Below are positions 4,536 through 34,054 of a stretch of DNA of 64,000 nt, one piece after another. Each line of letters starts with the position of its first letter. The stretch's first letter is position 1. A program made the position numbers and the translations under genes. The notes beneath the pieces are model-generated. The model had not been told where the DNA came from. It searched no databases and saw only the letters and a program-made list of their open reading frames with translations. Source of the DNA: Escherichia phage vB_EcoP_EP32B; the sequence record OR544955; one strand, given 5' to 3'.

Positions 4536-4598
4536 TGTATAACAAGATAGGGCTATGTTATAGTAGTCCTATCAAATAAAAGTGAAGAGGAGAATAAA

Positions 4599-6196
<1,598 letters not shown>

Positions 6197-6451
6197 ATGA
6201 TTTTACGTTTTATTAATTCATATGGCACCACAATTTTTGAAATGAAAAATCCAAGTGAACTGGATATCCCTTCACCGAATAGTGAAATCACAGTTAAAGG
6301 TGAACGATTCATTTGCTATTCACACGAACGAATTTATGAATATCGTGAATTTTGTGGTGGTTACGGTATAGAAAAAGAACCGTTGGTTTATTTCGATATC
6401 ACAGTCTTGACACCTAAAGAATACGAAGAAATTATTGCTGAGGATAATTAA
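6197..6451 (+). CDS. Hypothetical early protein (nrdA.x position)
   Basis: 84-aa ORF between td and nrdA on the sense strand. Confidence 0.5.
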   Translation: MILRFINSYGTTIFEMKNPSELDIPSPNSEITVKGERFICYSHERIYEYREFCGGYGIEKEPLVYFDITVLTPKEYEEIIAEDN

Positions 6452-6538
6452 CGCTTCAGTTTAAAAGTGTATAATAAATTAACGGGATAAATACTATCCC
6501 GTTTGGAGTAATGTCTATCAACCTATACCGAGGACTAT

Positions 6539-8794
6539 ATGCAAGTAACTAAGAGCAGTGGTGTATCCCAAAATTTTGATGCACAGAAAATTATTCAAGT
6601 CTTAACTTGGCAATGTGAAGGAACACAAATTGACCCATATGAATTGTACGAAGAAATTAAGACCCATCTTGTCGATGGGATGAGCACCAAAGATATTCAG
6701 AAGATTTGTATTAAAGTTGCGGCTAACTCGATTTCTGTCGAAGAACCTGATTATCAGTATGTCGCCGCTAAAGGATTAATGTTTGCACTTCGTAAAGATG
6801 TATACGGACAGTTTGAACCACCTGCTTTTATCGACCATATTTCTTACTGTGTTAATGAAGGCAAATACGACCCCGAGCTGTTGTCTCAATATTCAGCAGA
6901 AGAAATCATTTATCTTGATTCTCGGATTAAACACGAACGAGATTTTGACCTGACTTATGCTGGTGCTATGCAGCTTAAAGAAAAATATCTAGTTAAAGAT
7001 AAAACAACTGGGAAGATTTATGAAACTCCACAGTTTGCTATCATGGCTATTGGCATGGCCTTACATCAAGACGAAACTCGTGACCGTTTGAAACATATTA
7101 TTCGTTTTTATGATGCCGTTTCTACTCATCAAGTTTCATTGCCTACCCCAATTATGGCAGGTGCTCGTACTCCGACTCGCCAGTTCTCTAGTTGTGTAGT
7201 TATTGAAGCCGGTGATTCGTTAAAATCTATTAACAAAACTTCAGCATCAATTATTGAATATATTTCTAAACGAGCTGGTATTGGTATCAACGTTGGTATG
7301 CTTCGTGCAGAAGGTTCTAAGATCGGTATGGGTGAAGTTCGACATACGGGTGTTATTCCATTCTGGAAACATTTCCAAACTGCAGTAAAATCTTGTTCTC
7401 AAGGTGGTATTCGTGGTGGTGCTGCTACAGCGTATTATCCGATGTGGCACTTAGAAGTAGAGAACCTATTAGTTCTGAAAAATAACAAAGGCGTGGATGA
7501 AAACCGTATTCGACATATGGACTACGGAATTCAGATTAATGACCTTATGATGGAACGCCTTGGTAAAAATGATTATATTACTTTATTTAGCCCTCACGAA
7601 ATGTCAGGCGAACTATACTACTCGTTCTTTGAAGATCAAGATAAATTCCGTGAGCTTTATGAGAAAGCTGAAAAAGACCCGACAATCAGAAAGAAAAGAA
7701 TCAAAGCACTAGAACTCTTTGAATTGTTCATGACTGAACGTTCTGGCACTGCTCGAATTTATCCACAATTCGTTGATAACACGAATAACTACACTCCGTT
7801 TATTCGTGAAAAAGCTCCAATTCGTCAGAGTAACTTATGTTGTGAAATCGCTATTCCGACTAATGATGTGAATGGCCCTGATGCTGAAATTGGTTTATGC
7901 ACATTATCTGCTTTTGTATTAGATAAATTTGATTGGCAAGACCAAGATAAAATTAATGAACTTGCTGAAGTACAAGTACGTGCACTTGATAACCTGTTAG
8001 ACTATCAAGATTATCCGGTTCCAGAAGCTTTAAAAGCCAAAAAGCGTCGAAACCTCGGTGTCGGTGTGACGAACTATGCCGCATGGTTAGCTTCTAACTT
8101 TGCTTCATATGAAGACGCTAACGATTTGACTCATGAATTGTTTGAGAGATTGCAATATGGCCTTATCAAAGCTTCAATCAAACTCGCCAAAGAAAAAGGA
8201 CCTTGCGAGTATTATTCAGACACTAAATGGTCTCGAGGCGAATTACCTATCGACTGGTACAATAAAAAGATTGACCAAATCGCAGCCCCGAACTACGTCT
8301 GTGACTGGGAAGAACTTCGAGCTGAACTCAAAGAACATGGAATTCGTAACTCAACATTGTCTGCACTTATGCCATGTGAATCAAGCAGCCAGGTTTCTAA
8401 CTCTACAAACGGGATTGAACCGCCGCGTGGTCCAGTAAGTATTAAAGAATCTAAAGAAGGCAACTTCCGTCAGGTTGTTCCTAATATAGAACATAACATG
8501 AGTCTTTACGACTACGCGTGGAAACTTGCTAAGAAAGGTAATAAACCTTATTTGACCCAAGTTGCTATCATGTTGAAATGGGTGTGCCAATCTGCTTCTG
8601 CTAATACTTACTATGACCCTGCGGTATTTGAGAAAGGTAAAGTACCAATGTCAGTAATGCTTGACGATCTACTTTACTTCTGGTACTTTGGTGGAAAAAA
8701 TCTCTACTATCATAACACTCGTGATGGGTCAGGTACAGATGACTATGAATTAGAAACACCTAAAGCTGAAGATTGTTCTGCTTGTAAGCTTTAA
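6539..8794 (+). CDS. nrdA: Ribonucleoside-diphosphate reductase large subunit
   Basis: 751 aa (T4 754); RNR active-site region ...RQSNLCCEIAIP... and C-terminal Cys pair (CSACKL). Confidence 0.93.
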   Translation: MQVTKSSGVSQNFDAQKIIQVLTWQCEGTQIDPYELYEEIKTHLVDGMSTKDIQKICIKVAANSISVEEPDYQYVAAKGLMFALRKDVYGQFEPPAFIDHISYCVNEGKYDPELLSQYSAEEIIYLDSRIKHERDFDLTYAGAMQLKEKYLVKDKTTGKIYETPQFAIMAIGMALHQDETRDRLKHIIRFYDAVSTHQVSLPTPIMAGARTPTRQFSSCVVIEAGDSLKSINKTSASIIEYISKRAGIGINVGMLRAEGSKIGMGEVRHTGVIPFWKHFQTAVKSCSQGGIRGGAATAYYPMWHLEVENLLVLKNNKGVDENRIRHMDYGIQINDLMMERLGKNDYITLFSPHEMSGELYYSFFEDQDKFRELYEKAEKDPTIRKKRIKALELFELFMTERSGTARIYPQFVDNTNNYTPFIREKAPIRQSNLCCEIAIPTNDVNGPDAEIGLCTLSAFVLDKFDWQDQDKINELAEVQVRALDNLLDYQDYPVPEALKAKKRRNLGVGVTNYAAWLASNFASYEDANDLTHELFERLQYGLIKASIKLAKEKGPCEYYSDTKWSRGELPIDWYNKKIDQIAAPNYVCDWEELRAELKEHGIRNSTLSALMPCESSSQVSNSTNGIEPPRGPVSIKESKEGNFRQVVPNIEHNMSLYDYAWKLAKKGNKPYLTQVAIMLKWVCQSASANTYYDPAVFEKGKVPMSVMLDDLLYFWYFGGKNLYYHNTRDGSGTDDYELETPKAEDCSACKL

Positions 8795-27942: not shown

Positions 27943-29715
27943 TTAATTAACACCGGTGGCATGGAAAATTCCAGGAGCCGTTGTACTTGTTACAGGGGTC
28001 ATATTCTGGACTACGGTATTCTTTTTGACGACATTATTTGTGTTACTAATCGCCGCTACCGGTTGCTGTTGTTTAGATTCAGAAGCACGTCCTTTCTCTA
28101 TTGACTGAACTTGTTTTGCTTCCGGAGATTTAGTCGAAGATTCAGGCTTAACTGTTGTCTGAGCCTTTTTGGCTTCAGCCATTTTATTATTTAGCTTTTC
28201 AAATCTAGCATCTATTTCCTTTTTAACAACAGGAGTTTTATTAAGTTCAGGGTCTTTAATAAGTTTACTTAAATCAGCATAAGACTTCTCGACGTTTTTA
28301 GCATTTTCTGGATTAGTCATATCGATTTTATCGATATAATCCTCAAATCTAACCAGTGCCGCACGAGTTTCATTAGCTTTTATGTACGCCTCTTTACGCT
28401 CCTCTTCAGGTAACTCTTTTAATTTTGCTGATTCCGCAGCACGCTCATCGCTTGTACTAAACTCTTCTTTATTGTCATTACCACGAACCCAGTTAGTAAC
28501 GAATGTTTTGCCGCGTTGTAACATATCAAGACCTTTAGAAACGGTTCCTAATTCCCCATCGTCACGCTTCATTTGATATTTAGCGACTTTCTCTTGGTCT
28601 TCTTTCTTTAATTTGTTTCCAGTAGTTTCTTGGAATCCTTCCAAAGCACGTCCTTCTATTTCGTCCGCGGTATCGCCAAAACCTATAGCACGCAATATAG
28701 ACGCAGAGAGTTTAGCCATTCCTAATTGAATTAGTTCACCTAAGTTCATTAATGCTGTTCCTACACCTTTGACAATAGCAACGGTTAAACCACCCCAGTC
28801 TCCAGCTTCCCATAATTGTTTTATCGAGTCAACAGAGGTGAATATATCACTTAAGAATTTACCCCACTCTTTAGCTTCATCGGAGAATTTAGTAAAGTTT
28901 TCATCAAATAAATCCCAGGCAGAAGTGAACTTGTCTGTCCAATATTTGAAATGGACTATCAATAAATCAATACCAATAACAATACCAAGAATAAGTGCAG
29001 CCATTTTTGCTGCTTCAATAGCAGCCGTTATAGTGTATTTGAAAAGCATTCCAGCAATTCTGTCTGAAATTGATATTGATTTATTAAACCCGGTTTGAAC
29101 TGTTTTTGTGAGCATTGCAATTTTATCGCTCAATTTAAAGCTAATTCCGCCTTTAGAATCGGAAGTAGAATTAGCACTTTCTTGAACCGGGGCCGGGAAG
29201 AAATCTTCGTCTGGCTTATTATCAATCTTTTCAGGTGTAGGTAATGCTTTAAACAACTCGTCAGAAGTTTCATTCTCAACCACTTTAACAGGTATTGCGT
29301 TCTCAATTACTTCAAGAGAGGTGCCTCCTGTATTTTGAATAGCGGTAGATGTTTGTAATTTTTGCTCTAATAATGTAGCTAATCGGTCTAACTTAGAGCT
29401 TATTGCACTAGAAACTTCGTTTATACTTTTAGTGACTTCAGTTTGTTTTTCAATAACTTCTGCGATAAGCTCTGTGCCTTCAGCAGTATTATCTGTCGAA
29501 TTCTTTAAGTCTCCAATTGATTCAATAATTCCATTGCCTTTATCTTCTACACTTTGTGATGTGAGTTCAGACGCGGCTTGGACATCGTCTAGTTTTGATG
29601 AAATGTCATTCAATGCTTCTAATGAATCGGTAGCTGCTGTTGCAGCTACTTTTTGTGGTTTATTATCGGCAATGACCTTATTTCTACGCATGGATTTCAT
29701 TTCTTCAGGTTTCAT
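27943..29715 (-). CDS. 29: Baseplate hub / tail length determinator gp29
   Basis: 590 aa, identical to T4 gp29 length; synteny. Confidence 0.8.
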   Translation of the reverse strand: MKPEEMKSMRRNKVIADNKPQKVAATAATDSLEALNDISSKLDDVQAASELTSQSVEDKGNGIIESIGDLKNSTDNTAEGTELIAEVIEKQTEVTKSINEVSSAISSKLDRLATLLEQKLQTSTAIQNTGGTSLEVIENAIPVKVVENETSDELFKALPTPEKIDNKPDEDFFPAPVQESANSTSDSKGGISFKLSDKIAMLTKTVQTGFNKSISISDRIAGMLFKYTITAAIEAAKMAALILGIVIGIDLLIVHFKYWTDKFTSAWDLFDENFTKFSDEAKEWGKFLSDIFTSVDSIKQLWEAGDWGGLTVAIVKGVGTALMNLGELIQLGMAKLSASILRAIGFGDTADEIEGRALEGFQETTGNKLKKEDQEKVAKYQMKRDDGELGTVSKGLDMLQRGKTFVTNWVRGNDNKEEFSTSDERAAESAKLKELPEEERKEAYIKANETRAALVRFEDYIDKIDMTNPENAKNVEKSYADLSKLIKDPELNKTPVVKKEIDARFEKLNNKMAEAKKAQTTVKPESSTKSPEAKQVQSIEKGRASESKQQQPVAAISNTNNVVKKNTVVQNMTPVTSTTAPGIFHATGVN

Positions 29716-30245
29716 TCAAGCAATCCAATAATTTCTGCTATACCCTTAATAGGACCATTAGGGCCTGGAATAGCAATAGTTGTCGAAAGGTCTTCTGCCC
29801 ATTTGATTACAAAAGCAGGCATCTCAAGGAAAGAAATTTCTTTCTCTTCGTCATTAACTTTTATTAAGCAATTTGATAGCATTTCACTGATTGTAGCGAA
29901 TTGTTCAAATTTGCCTGGAGGTCTAAAATAAAAAGTATTGCCTTGGAATTGGAATTCTGTTCGTTGGCATACATAGACGTCATCTAGTTTATAAGTGAAT
30001 CCATCTTTTTCAACTTCAGACTTAAGTTTGTTATTAAATTCCAATATGTGTAGACATGCAAAATCAAAATCTGCGGGACTCATATTTTTACAAATAGAAT
30101 CAGCTAAGATTTTCATGTTTTCGTCAGGACCTTTAACGTCCTTTAAAAGATTATAATGTTTGAGCCCTAATTTAGGAATCATTACCTTTTTATTAGACTG
30201 TGGTAGAATTATTTTCTTTAGAGGTAGAATCAGATTTAAGTTCAT
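29712..30245 (-). CDS. 28: Baseplate hub distal subunit gp28
   Basis: 177 aa, identical to T4 gp28 length. Confidence 0.75.
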
Positions 30246-31365
30246 TTTTAACCTTAACTGGGTTAACAGGTTCTAACACCATTGAGTTGGTAAACATGTA
30301 CAGATGAGTTTGTGAGTTGTTATTTGATAACTCATGAATAACTTCATCTACGTAAAATTCGGATTTGAATTGGTTCTTTTGGTCAACAAATATAATTTTA
30401 GTAGCAGGCGTTATGTTAAAATTACCTGTAGTAGTACATTTAGCATATCCGTCATATTGAGCCATTGTCTGAAGACGACTTGCTTCTTCAAATCCATTAC
30501 GATAGGTCATTTCGGAATATCCACCGGATCTTGACACAACAATAGCATTATCACCATCACCTGTAACAATAACCGGAATAGATGTATCTAAAAATGAATG
30601 AGCGAATATCGTGGCGTTTTTAATAGGGTCTCTTGTAAATTGGTTAGCTTTAGTCATCCAGGTGAAATCCCATACTAATGGATACTCAAGCTCTTGAATA
30701 TACTGACCTACAGTATTTGGCTCACCTACAATCATCTTAATGCCTTCCTGACCAATAAGAGTATCGTAGTCAATCATGTTTACGCCTAAAATATCTTGCC
30801 ATACGAATACGAACTTATCACTCGCTGTAGCAAGTCCTAATTCTCTGACATATGCCAAATAATCATCAAATGTGCTTGTCCAAGGAATATCAGGAACATA
30901 AGCATTAATAGTGTTTATTGGCGGAGTAATTAACGTACGGTCTTTATATATGACACCTAACATTTCACGTATAGATTCTCCTGCGTCTGAGAAGAATGGT
31001 CGCCCAAATTTAAGGTTCTCTATAGAATGTATTGTTCCAAGCTCAATTGCAATAATATTGTCACCTTTTGAGTCCACAGACACAGAATAATGTCTACATC
31101 CGTAAATTCGAGTTCTAACTTGGAGAGGCGTGTTTGAATTTGAAACAGAGATTTGAACTATCTGTCTACCATCCATTTTAGTGTGGATGTTTTTAGTGTC
31201 ATAAAATTGAAGAATCCCTTCATTTCTTCCATATAGTGAATCTCGCATGGTTAAAGTTGTTATTGTTGCTGCGAGTTCAACATATCTATTTTCTTGCCAA
31301 GCAGAATAATCTTGGTATAATTTAACGCTTAAGTTAGGATATCCTGGACGTTGGAATACTGTCAT
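30193..31365 (-). CDS. 27: Baseplate hub subunit gp27
   Basis: 390 aa (T4 391). Confidence 0.8.
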
Positions 31366-32114
31366 TTTTTATGGTCCTTTTCTACTAATGTTAAAGCAAT
31401 ACCACGTTCAACAGGAATCATTTGCATAATAGAATCCAATGTGTATTGACTCTTTACTAGTGAATGGTTTATCTGATAGAATGTAAAAATCTCATCAGGG
31501 TTAACTAACAATTTAAAAACCTCTAAGATATCAGTATATGTTTTAACATGACGTTCACAACAACCTAATCTAAGGGTCAAATTAATAGGATTCATAGAAG
31601 CAATAACCTTCTCGAGCGAGTCAATGTCTATTGCTTCTATTACTTGGATTTGGTTCTCTTCAGTCAAATCATTCCATGGGTACCATTCATCATTATAATA
31701 TATTTCTTTTATGTTTTCACTTATCATTAATGCTTTATTGTCATAAAACTTTTCAGGGAAAGAAAAACGTATTTTTATACCAGCAACATCAAGTTCAGGT
31801 TCGACTAGTTCTTTTTGATATATCTCAAATGGTGCAGTTTTTTCTTTAGAGCATTTAGGGCAAGTGAAAATAACGGGAACTTTTGTTTTGCCTATAGAGC
31901 CTGCAAAAACTTGCAGGAATATAAATGGTTGCCATGTTTTAGGGTACTCGCCAAAATAATCATCAATCAGATCGGCAATTATTTCTTTTTGTTCTTGCGG
32001 CGAACGATGTTCGATATCATTTCTAACTAGTAAAAAGTCTCTATAATCCGCTACGGTGAACGGCTTGAAACGATGAACACCATCCGGTAATTTACAACGA
32101 ATTATATTAGCCAT
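31362..32114 (-). CDS. 51: Baseplate hub assembly catalyst gp51
   Basis: 250 aa (T4 249); late promoter 18 nt upstream. Confidence 0.75.
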
Positions 32115-32131
32115 AATTACTCCTTTTCTAT

Positions 32132-32143
32132 TATTTATAAATA
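32132..32143. promoter_or_regulatory. Divergent overlapping late promoters (gene 51 on minus, genes 26-25 on plus)
   Basis: Sequence TATTTATAAATA: plus-strand TATAAATA (32136-32143) 19 nt upstream of gene 26; minus-strand TATAAATA (rc of 32132-32139) 18 nt upstream of gene 51. Confidence 0.65.
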
Positions 32144-32161
32144 CACAATAAAGGAGTTAAC

Positions 32162-32788
32162 ATGTACAAATATACATTTACCGTACGTTTAGGCGATAAA
32201 GAAGTGAATTGTAGAGCTTTTACTTTAAAAGAATATTTAGGACTCATAGGTGCGCGGGCTACCGGTACTATTGAATCAGCAGTGAACAATATTATCACTA
32301 ATTGCTCTAATGCTAAAAACTTGACCAAACAAGAAGCCGAGCTATTGTTGGTAAATCTGTGGGCACATTCATTAGGTGAAGTGAATCAAGAACACACCTG
32401 GAATTGTTCCTGTGGGCATTCATTTCAAGTCTATATGAATTTATTGCACACTCAATTAGATGAACAGGCCGATCCATGGTATTCGTTCAGTGGTATTAAA
32501 ATTAAGTTCCGTCAACCTAAATTATTTGACGATAAAAATATCGCATTAATGATTGCTTCATGTATTGAGGCCGTTTTTGTCAATGGAGAGTCCATCCCTG
32601 TTGAAGATTTAACTGAAGCAGAAATAAATGACCTTTACGGCCTTATAACAGAAGATGACATGATCAATATTAAAAATCTTTTGGTATCGCCATCAATTTA
32701 TCTGGCAACCCCTATTAAATGTCCCAAATGTGGGGCGTCACACGTTCACACAATACGAGGCCTCAAAGAATTCTTTGAGTTACTATAA
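32162..32788 (+). CDS. 26: Baseplate hub subunit gp26
   Basis: 208 aa, identical to T4 gp26 length; divergent from gene 51. Confidence 0.75.
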   Translation: MYKYTFTVRLGDKEVNCRAFTLKEYLGLIGARATGTIESAVNNIITNCSNAKNLTKQEAELLLVNLWAHSLGEVNQEHTWNCSCGHSFQVYMNLLHTQLDEQADPWYSFSGIKIKFRQPKLFDDKNIALMIASCIEAVFVNGESIPVEDLTEAEINDLYGLITEDDMINIKNLLVSPSIYLATPIKCPKCGASHVHTIRGLKEFFELL

Positions 32789-33186
32789 TGTCTAATATCA
32801 ATAAACTTTATTCAGATATCGACCCAGAAATGCGTATGGATTGGAACAAGGACGTTGCTCGTTCTGTAGGACTTCGTTCTATTAAAAATAGTCTTCTTGG
32901 CATAGTGACAACTAGAAAAGGCTCACGCCCCTTCGACCCTGAATTTGGATGCGATTTGGTTGATGAACTTTTCGAGAACATGACACCACTTACAGCCGAT
33001 ACGATTGAGCGTAATATCCAGGCAGCCGTCCGTAACTATGAGCCGCGCATCGACAAACTTTCTGTAAGTGTAACGCCAGTATATGATGACTATACAGTTA
33101 TAGTAGAGATTAGATTTTCGGTCGTAGATAACCCTGATGATATCGAACAAATCAAACTTCAGTTAGCGTCAAGCAATAGAGTGTAA
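32788..33186 (+). CDS. 25: Baseplate wedge subunit gp25
   Basis: 132 aa, identical to T4 gp25; N-terminus MSNINKLYSDIDPEMRMDWNKD. Confidence 0.82.
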   Translation: MSNINKLYSDIDPEMRMDWNKDVARSVGLRSIKNSLLGIVTTRKGSRPFDPEFGCDLVDELFENMTPLTADTIERNIQAAVRNYEPRIDKLSVSVTPVYDDYTVIVEIRFSVVDNPDDIEQIKLQLASSNRV

Positions 33187-33266
33187 TGCTTCAAGGCAAC
33201 CTATGTATAATGGTTTTAGGTCCTTCCGATACAGCCGGGAGATTATTAGTTAAAAGAGAGAATATT

Positions 33267-33680
33267 ATGAAGCTGGAAGATTTACAGGAAGAGTTAGACA
33301 CAGACTTAGCTATTGATACGACAAAGTTGCAATATGAGACAGCGAATAATGTTAAGTTATACAGCAAATGGCTACGTAAGCACTCATTTATTCGTAAAGA
33401 AATGTTGCGTATAGAGACTCAGAAGAAAACTGCTCTAAAAGCGAGATTAGACTACTACTCGGGACGAGGTGACGGTGATGAATTCAGTATGGACCGATAC
33501 GAGAAATCTGAAATGAAAACTGTCCTGGCTGCTGATAAAGATGTGCTTAAAATAGAGACTACTTTACAATACTGGGGAATTTTACTTGAGTTCTGTAGTG
33601 GTGCACTTGATGCAGTTAAGTCTCGTAGTTTTGCACTTAAACATATCCAGGATATGCGAGAATTTGAAGCGGGGCAATAA
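33267..33680 (+). CDS. uvsY: Recombination mediator UvsY
   Basis: ATG at 33267 gives 137 aa (T4 UvsY 137 aa) beginning MKLEDLQEELDTD...; track ORF starts further upstream in-frame. Confidence 0.85.
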   Translation: MKLEDLQEELDTDLAIDTTKLQYETANNVKLYSKWLRKHSFIRKEMLRIETQKKTALKARLDYYSGRGDGDEFSMDRYEKSEMKTVLAADKDVLKIETTLQYWGILLEFCSGALDAVKSRSFALKHIQDMREFEAGQ

Positions 33681-33877
33681 TGCGTTATTCAATTGAAGAT
33701 GCCTTTAATAATGATGAAGAATTTGAAACAGAAATTAAATTCTTAATGGAAAAGTATCGTCTACGACGTCAGGATATTCGTATCCTGGCAGACCACCCGT
33801 GTGGTGAAGACGTCCTTTATATTAAAGGAAAATTTGCCGGTGCGAGTGGTATAAATAGATATGTAATTTCAACTTAG
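33680..33877 (+). CDS. Hypothetical protein (uvsY.-2 position)
   Basis: 65-aa ORF overlapping uvsY stop. Confidence 0.5.
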   Translation: MRYSIEDAFNNDEEFETEIKFLMEKYRLRRQDIRILADHPCGEDVLYIKGKFAGASGINRYVIST

Positions 33878-33886
33878 GAGGCAATC

Positions 33887-34054
33887 ATGTCAGATAAGAT
33901 TTGTGTTGTCTGTAAAACTCCAATCGATTCTGCATTGGTTGTTGAAACAGACAAAGGTCCAGCACATCCTGGTCCTTGTTATAATTATGTCCAACAATTG
34001 CCGGTTTCAGAAAGTTCAGAAGAGCAATTGAACGAAACCCAACTTTTACTATAG
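33887..34054 (+). CDS. Hypothetical small Cys-containing protein (55 aa; uvsY.-1 position)
   Basis: Strong RBS AGGAGG 7 nt upstream of ATG 33887; product MSDKICVVCKTPIDS...; below track cutoff; followed by bidirectional terminator. Confidence 0.5.
   Translation: MSDKICVVCKTPIDSALVVETDKGPAHPGPCYNYVQQLPVSESSEEQLNETQLLL

Follow-up and report, generated by a model that had tools for sequence, protein, structure and literature searches.

We examined genes 51 and 26 in a 64,000-nucleotide (nt) stretch of Escherichia phage vB_EcoP_EP32B (record OR544955; hereafter the window). The window comes from an RB69-like T-even phage (Mosigvirus), and the 2.2 kilobases around the two genes are 98-99% identical to RB69-like phages and ~73% identical in DNA to T4. 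Gene 51 (31362-32114, minus strand) encodes a protein of 250 amino acids (aa), the long paralogue, with a PF12322 core and a C-terminal extension. Gene 26 (32162-32788, plus strand) encodes the short paralogue of 208 aa, which consists of the PF12322 core only. A spacer of 47 base pairs (bp) separates the two start codons, and all two-gene phages that we examined retain this head-to-head order. On the minus strand the locus carries genes 29, 28, 27 and 51 in this order, followed on the plus strand by 26, 25 and uvsY. Gene 51 has the same strand as the tape-measure gene 29, but genes 27 and 28 lie in between; gene 26 is on the other strand, and gene 28 adjoins gene 29. The T4 records (NC_000866, AF158101) have the same gene order, the same two genes head to head and the same 12-bp palindrome TATTTATAAATA between them, in a spacer of 50 bp. 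T4 gp26 and the gp26 of the window are 62% identical, and apart from sequence divergence we found nothing functionally different between the two 51/26 loci.

Homology of gp26 and gp51

The original prediction, made from the DNA letters and translated open reading frames (ORFs), described gp51 and gp26 as paralogues with clear similarity, CPKC motifs and similar C-termini. The overall similarity was borne out. BLASTP aligned the two proteins at 25% identity over 214 columns (E=2e-10), in an alignment that takes in the GIKIRF/GIKIKF stretch quoted in the prediction, and profile comparison with hhalign gave a probability of 99.2-99.6% (E 1e-19 to 5e-24) over ~190 colinear columns. Both proteins match Pfam PF12322 (T4_baseplate; gathering score 24.5 bits), gp51 with 200.2 bits (E=4.6e-59, residues 1-201) and gp26 with 203.5 bits (E 4.5e-60, residues 1-206), and both match PHROG 150. 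This family assignment is already curated in Pfam and PHROGs. On the direct alignments, gp26 and gp51 are also homologous to each other, beyond their co-matching of one broad model.

The claim of similar C-termini did not survive. In gp51, residues ~198-203 are the counterpart of the gp26 end (EFFELL), the alignments stop at gp51 residue 203, and gp51 runs 47 residues further. This extension (residues ~204-250; 31362-31505, minus strand) is absent from gp26. PHROG 634 matches gp51 over residues 147-248 and gp51 homologues carry PF28602. Set against PF12322 and PHROG 150, gp51 adds a C-terminal domain that gp26 does not have.

CPKC motifs are present in both proteins, as predicted, but at non-homologous positions. 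C85-P-K-C88 of gp51 (31851-31862, minus strand) aligns with C82-x-C84 of gp26 (32405-32413, plus strand), and C187-P-K-C190 of gp26 (32720-32731, plus strand) aligns with C185-C186 of gp51 (31557-31562, minus strand). Among 43 gp51 homologues, C85, C88 and C185 are invariant and C186 is at least 90% conserved; among 35 gp26 homologues, C82, C187 and C190 are invariant and C84 is at least 90% conserved. In our structure model of gp26, the first of its two putative zinc knuckles (C82-x-C84) sits at the turn between strands 75-81 and 87-93, and the second (C187-P-K-C190) at the turn between strands 179-186 and 193-199. Residues 184-203 of gp26 have weak Pfam zinc-ribbon matches, below the cut-off. 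By these alignments, the two CPKC motifs are opposite knuckles of what looks like one putative four-cysteine zinc site. The four T-even cysteines are absent in two cyanophage PF12322 proteins that we inspected, those of S-T4 (locus 4944-5660) and S-SM2 (locus 5787-6506). Because these proteins have none of the four, the putative site would be a lineage-specific addition and not a feature of the family.

Predicted overlapping late promoters in the 51/26 spacer

The palindrome TATTTATAAATA lies at 32132-32143 and reads as TATAAATA on both strands, with exactly the letters and coordinates first reported. It is made of two 8-bp boxes on opposite strands that overlap by 4 bp. The box for gene 51 (32132-32139, minus strand) is 18 nt from its ATG and the box for gene 26 (32136-32143, plus strand) is 19 nt from its ATG; both match the late-promoter sequence exactly. 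Only 0.04 copies of TATTTATAAATA are expected per shuffled window, and the single copy found is the one in the spacer, making a chance origin unlikely. The 8-bp box itself occurs 17 times in the window against 6.9 expected, a count reached in none of 100 shuffles, and most copies are 15-33 nt upstream of a long ORF.

To assess conservation, we compared the 51/26 spacer across 15 genera. Thirteen of them have the exact 12-mer (Mosigvirus, Tequatrovirus, Moonvirus, a Slopekvirus-like phage, Dhakavirus, Winklervirus, Gelderlandvirus, Marfavirus, Karamvirus, Roskildevirus, Tegunavirus, Lazarusvirus and Acinetobacter phage 133), and the adjacent bases vary freely. The other two have near-variants: TATTTATAAAATA in Krischvirus, with a one-base insertion, and TATTTAAATA, a shorter palindrome, in Biquartavirus. 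The box for gene 51 is found in 14 of the 15 genera. This conservation supports the palindrome as a late promoter.

The symmetry extends beyond the 12-mer. Gene 51 and gene 26 each have the Shine-Dalgarno sequence AAAGGAG (32120-32126, minus strand, and 32150-32156, plus strand), and these form part of an inverted repeat (32112-32126 and 32150-32164) in which the start codon and Shine-Dalgarno sequence of one gene mirror those of the other. The whole spacer is a quasi-palindrome with arms of 15 nt that are 80% complementary, and its dyad axis (32137|32138) is also that of the 12-mer. T4 late promoters have an 8-bp box at the -10 position and no -35 element, give late transcripts in either direction, and are activated by the sliding clamp in a polar manner (PMC2988020). 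With the box set at -13 to -6 after the same source, transcription is predicted to start near 32126 on the minus strand and near 32149 on the plus strand, ~23 bp apart. The predicted leaders, 12-13 nt each, are nearly all Shine-Dalgarno sequence.

Both boxes fit T4-type late promoters, and their activity in this phage is predicted from conservation and from what is known of T4. The original prediction spoke of one shared late promoter. Both genes do have a late box, but the two are better described as two overlapping promoters on opposite strands. Each gene would be transcribed late from its own promoter. Because the -10 elements overlap by 4 bp, the two initiations would be mutually exclusive: with -10 elements and melted regions abutting or overlapping, one polymerase could be accommodated at a time and each initiation would pick one direction. 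A clamp arriving in either orientation would meet a correctly oriented promoter. Scarlato et al., in 1989, reportedly mapped overlapping divergent late promoters of T4 genes 51 and 26, so that both these promoters and the paralogue family are established knowledge. The T4 feature tables in GenBank and RefSeq (AF158101, NC_000866) contain no promoter features.

Single-gene relatives with a heptamer and a -1 frame extension

Distant T4-like phages have a single PF12322 gene; they include cyanophages, KVP40-like and Aeh1-like phages, Cr30, phiM9 and others. A scan of IMG/VR with the gp26 of the window returned only five loci, and we used the annotated phage collection instead. In the cyanophages S-SM2 and S-T4, a small -1 frame ORF comes after the PF12322 gene (locus 6482-6691 in S-SM2 and 5636-5842 in S-T4); the S-SM2 RefSeq record calls it "baseplate hub assembly catalyst." This frame is open from 22 nt ahead of the stop codon, giving a 25-nt overlap when the stop is included, and the overlap contains GGT TTT TTC GCA TAG, a classic X_XXY_YYZ slippery heptamer. 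An ORF upstream of the gp26-like gene of S-T4 was considered as a tandem gp51 and rejected, as it encodes a tail-tube-like protein (PF23849).

We then compared 80 cyanophage-like IMG/VR loci with 28 distinct 3' ends. The arrangement NNT TTT TT[C/T], one codon and a stop is invariant in all 80, over a first codon that varies among TCT, GCT, AGT and GGT. The -1 ORF has 58-61 codons and is conserved up to the heptamer, in some clades without a start codon. At most 25% of the Phe-Phe dipeptides in the same loci are encoded as NNT TTT TTY, the junction sites being included in this count.

The heptamer is not confined to cyanophages. It stands exactly 9 nt before the stop in seven phages: Caulobacter phage Cr30, Stenotrophomonas phage Yut2, Aeromonas phage AsFcp_4 (Angelvirus), Sinorhizobium phage phiM9 (as TTTTTTG), Nitratidesulfovibrio phage SRB7757, cyanophage S-SM2 and the KVP40-like Vibrio phage F86. 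All seven have a -1 ORF of 54-61 codons with a P-[FW]-E-R motif (L-F-E-R in F86), and in S-T4, AsFcp_4 and SRB7757 the conserved residues extend upstream of any start codon. A hidden Markov model (HMM) of gp51 aligns unbroken over the conceptual frameshift junction (positions 14-247, E 1e-14 to 1e-18) and also matches the -1 extensions alone (E~1e-7, positions 204-247). By these matches, the -1 frame extension is homologous to the C-terminal tail of gp51. In S-SM2, Cr30, Yut2, AsFcp_4, phiM9 and F86, a large gene in the tape-measure position comes next or after one small ORF, and it is annotated as tape measure only in Cr30. The two-gene phages have no heptamer, and the Phe-Phe pair, where gp26 keeps it, is encoded TTC TTT. 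The same is true of the window, where neither gene has the heptamer and gp26 encodes Phe-Phe as TTC TTT.

On this evidence, the heptamer is probably the site of an undescribed -1 programmed frameshift in the single-gene phages. By -1 ribosomal frameshifting at T_TTT_TTC near the stop codon, these phages would make both the short and the long form from one gene.

Two public records of this family have misplaced starts. The S-T4 record starts the small ORF at a TTG (locus 5708), cutting off 16 conserved codons, and the record of Enterobacter phage myPSH1140 sets the start of gp51 ~100 nt too far downstream (locus 311-458).

Proposed short and long chaperone-like forms and the likely origin of the pair

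We modeled gp26 with AlphaFold2 from 35 sequences (predicted local distance difference test score, pLDDT, 92.2; predicted template modeling score, pTM, 0.85). The N-terminal part of the model resembles the fold of the HK97 tail assembly chaperone. No solved structure matched the gp26/gp51 family by sequence, and there was no detectable sequence similarity to gpG-like families. Both gp26 and gp51 have been listed as hub assembly chaperones, with gp51 needed for assembly and absent from the particle (PMC3004832), and some GenBank records name gp26, gp28 and gp51 "tape measure protein assembly chaperone." The two proteins would then be tail-assembly-chaperone-like proteins for the tape-measure/hub complex and not ordinary baseplate subunits. 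In this role gp26 would be the short form, and gp51 the long form, with the same core and a C-terminal domain of ~47 residues. We infer that they are a two-gene equivalent of the short/long chaperone pair of the lambda G/GT type.

Levin et al. in 1993, Christie et al. in 2002 and Xu et al. in 2004 are said to have described gpG/gpGT of lambda and gpE/gpE+E' of P2 as products of -1 programmed frameshifting. These pairs have in common with gp26/gp51 a short and a long form on one core. The single-gene T4-like phages match them further, with a slippery heptamer that comes late in the short ORF and a -1 extension of ~55-60 codons. The lambda layout of G, G-T and H also recurs, since the PF12322 gene of the single-gene loci lies upstream of the tape measure or a large ORF, either directly or one small ORF apart. 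The T_TTT_TTG of phiM9 is identical to the P2 frameshift site. The window differs in that its two forms are separate, diverged genes on opposite strands without a frameshift site, and the T-even core differs from lambda gpG in its four-cysteine site and in the size of PF12322, which is about twice that of gpG. We infer that the window has a G/GT-like pair that works through two genes, and not a frameshifting member of this group.

A third protein of the module may belong here. Gene 28 (29712-30245, minus strand; 177 aa, Pfam PF11110) lies directly upstream of tape-measure gene 29, as does its T4 counterpart, the baseplate hub distal subunit. The AlphaFold2 model of gp28 (pLDDT 89.3) has its secondary-structure elements in the same order as that of gp26. 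Foldseek matched the gp26 model to gp28 orthologues in BFVD (E 5e-7 and 3.5e-6), and the gp28 model to gp26 orthologues (E 1.5e-6 and 3.5e-6) and then to gp51-sized proteins. The sequence signal is marginal (E 0.002-0.02), and hhalign was inconsistent, with a probability of 93.5% for small diverse alignments and 6.5% for larger, shallower ones. gp28 is also shorter than gp26 and gp51 and lacks their conserved cysteines. From the structure models more than the sequence profiles, gp28 is a probable, tentatively assigned, third and remote paralogue of gp26 and gp51. HMM searches of the single-gene loci found no gp28-like protein at E<0.05.

The original prediction also proposed an ancient inverted duplication, and the phylogeny supports this. 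We built a neighbor-joining tree of the core that all these proteins share (30 sequences, 196 columns). It places gp26 with gp51, apart from the single-gene forms, with 91% bootstrap support; the gp51 clade has 99% and the gp26 clade 73%, and each roughly mirrors the phage phylogeny. The tree is consistent with a single duplication in a common ancestor of Tevenvirinae, Twarogvirinae, Krischvirus and Biquartavirus, at a time when Angelvirus and the KVP40-like phages had already branched off. A published list of core genes for T4-related phages that includes gp26 but not gp51 (PMC2993671) agrees with this. In this ancestor, an inverted duplication would have given rise to gene 51, permanently "shifted" to the long form, and to gene 26, which encodes the short form. 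With respect to the tape-measure gene, gene 51 would still be on its original strand and side, and the inverted copy would be gene 26. Such a duplication would also have copied the upstream promoter head to head. The palindrome may have come about in this way, or equally from packing two consensus boxes and two Shine-Dalgarno sequences into 47 bp, which would look palindromic anyway.

gp26 ends in ELL, KLI or KVM after Phe-Phe (32774-32788 in the window, and four other gp26 loci). These endings resemble the start of the -1 extension and the "FKLL" of gp51, unlike the zero-frame ends of single-gene phages. Because of this resemblance, gp26 may derive from a long form that was fused beforehand and then lost its end.

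Several observations weigh against this account, and some of them favor other explanations. The main rival to frameshifting is that the small -1 ORF is a gene in its own right, with translation starting by termination-reinitiation at an ATG that overlaps the stop; gp51 would then be a fusion of two genes, there would be no short/long logic, and the run of T would be nothing but Phe-Phe. A -1 ATG does overlap the stop, as TGATG or TAATG, in Cr30, Yut2, phiM9 and F86, so separate translation by coupling is possible there. Vibrio phage K351 has the overlapping ATG (TAATG) and no heptamer (locus 4555-4761), and translational coupling may there yield the extension domain as a small protein of its own. 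In many cyanophage sequences an ATG stands four codons past the shift site, and database records either annotate the ORF as a separate gene or leave it without annotation. The conserved Phe-Phe dipeptide explains part of the heptamer, and RNAalifold found no conserved pairs downstream of it; to our knowledge, lambda G-T is likewise without downstream RNA structure. Against an independent gene, the codon ahead of Phe-Phe ends in T in 80 of 80 loci, over four different codons, and the first Phe codon is always TTT, whereas the two-gene phages encode the same pair as TTC TTT. S-T4, AsFcp_4 and SRB7757 have no junction ATG, yet the peptide is conserved up to the heptamer, and the distance from heptamer to stop is a constant 9 nt across eight deep lineages. 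We consider an independent small gene unlikely as an alternative to frameshifting, and coupling may also occur in some lineages.

The remaining alternatives concern the two-gene phages. In older genetic work, gp26 and gp28 were assigned to the hub as structural components (PMC3004832), and many GenBank records label gp26 "baseplate hub subunit"; if both proteins are structural, the chaperone resemblance of the gp26 model would be a coincidence of fold, which we regard as improbable. The tree carries a caveat in that its groups are only ~18-20% identical, and long-branch effects are possible. The identity between gp26 and gp51 (~18-25%) is also similar to that with single-gene homologues, as it would be if there had been no local duplication and one copy had been acquired horizontally from another T4-like phage, landing beside its homologue. 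This is very improbable in our judgment, considering the grouping of gp26 with gp51 and the agreement of both clades with phage phylogeny, the adjacent head-to-head placement in every two-gene phage examined, and a four-cysteine site common to gp26 and gp51 that is absent from the two cyanophage proteins inspected. As to the promoters, the function ascribed to them in this phage draws on their conservation and on what T4 has taught. Since TATAAATA is almost self-complementary, a mirror box costs just four extra bases, and not all listed T4 late-promoter sites are proven active in vivo (PMC2988020). It could be, then, that one half of the palindrome works as a promoter, that the other reading is a by-product of this near-symmetry, and that the second gene is transcribed from elsewhere. 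However, 13 of 15 genera show no change at any of the 12 positions although neighboring bases are free to vary, each box has its ATG 18-19 nt away with a Shine-Dalgarno sequence in between, and the window contains no TATAAATA between 17725 and 33850 other than the pair in the spacer. Sigma-70-type sites around the spacer are not enriched either (10 found, 8.1 expected). A single working promoter is extremely improbable on these grounds.

Other features of the locus lie downstream of the spacer. An internal ATT codon of gene 26 (32501-32503, plus strand) occupies the start position of T4 gp26* (annotated 26'), with the same codon and context, and by analogy with the T4 annotation gene 26 here probably also yields a C-terminal product of 95 residues. 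The start codon of gene 25 and the stop codon of gene 26 overlap (TAATG, 32785-32790), and gene 25 is in the -1 frame relative to gene 26; the T4 26/25 junction has an unusual split ribosome-binding site (PMC3014915). The mechanically called uvsY ORF has 164 aa. Because T4 uvsY has 137 aa, the true start is probably an internal ATG (MKLEDLQ...; 33186-33270), which would leave a spacer of ~80 nt after gene 25 with a terminator-like hairpin at 33223-33241. The T4 replication origin oriF sits in this gene 25-uvsY region. A further exact TATAAATA at 33850-33857 (plus strand), 30 nt upstream of a 55-aa uvsY.-2-like ORF (33887-34054), may be a late promoter for that ORF.

Taken as a whole, we think it likely that genes 51 and 26 are late-promoter-driven paralogues that act as short and long tape-measure chaperones, that relatives have frameshifting equivalents, and that the pair arose by inverted duplication. 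A narrower statement is that gp26 and gp51 are the T4 counterparts of G/GT, and that most T4-like lineages (among which we place Kyanoviridae, KVP40-like and Aeh1-like phages, Cr30, phiM9, Menderavirus and SRB7757) frameshift one gene and one Straboviridae lineage duplicated it. That this is at once correct and unpublished we hold tentatively, at slightly below an even chance. In the literature we searched, a scope outside which key subscription papers lay, there was no report of gp26/gp51 paralogy, of a tape-measure chaperone role, of a frameshift in T4-like gp26 or of G/GT equivalence. Within that scope, the chaperone-like N-terminal fold of gp26, gp28 as a remote paralogue, and the heptamer with its -1 extension in single-gene phages appear to be new here.

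The divergent 51/26 pair as first described re-derives known T4 biology from raw sequence, and we see it as a positive control rather than news. The link from gp26/gp51 to frameshifting goes further, as it provides a concrete and testable model of short and long tape-measure chaperones, and the production of both forms from one gene in relatives suggests why this phage keeps two copies. If the model is true, the "catalytic" gp51 would be the long form, of low abundance, the ratio would be set by how strong the two promoter directions and ribosome-binding sites are relative to each other, in place of frameshift efficiency, and gp28 would be a third, more diverged copy. Under the model, a programmed frameshift is expected in hundreds of genomes of marine cyanophages that are now annotated with two genes, and thousands of small "baseplate hub assembly catalyst" ORFs in databases would be mis-annotated frameshift extensions. 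T4-like phages would then offer a natural example of gene duplication and recoding as interchangeable routes to two related proteins in a set ratio.

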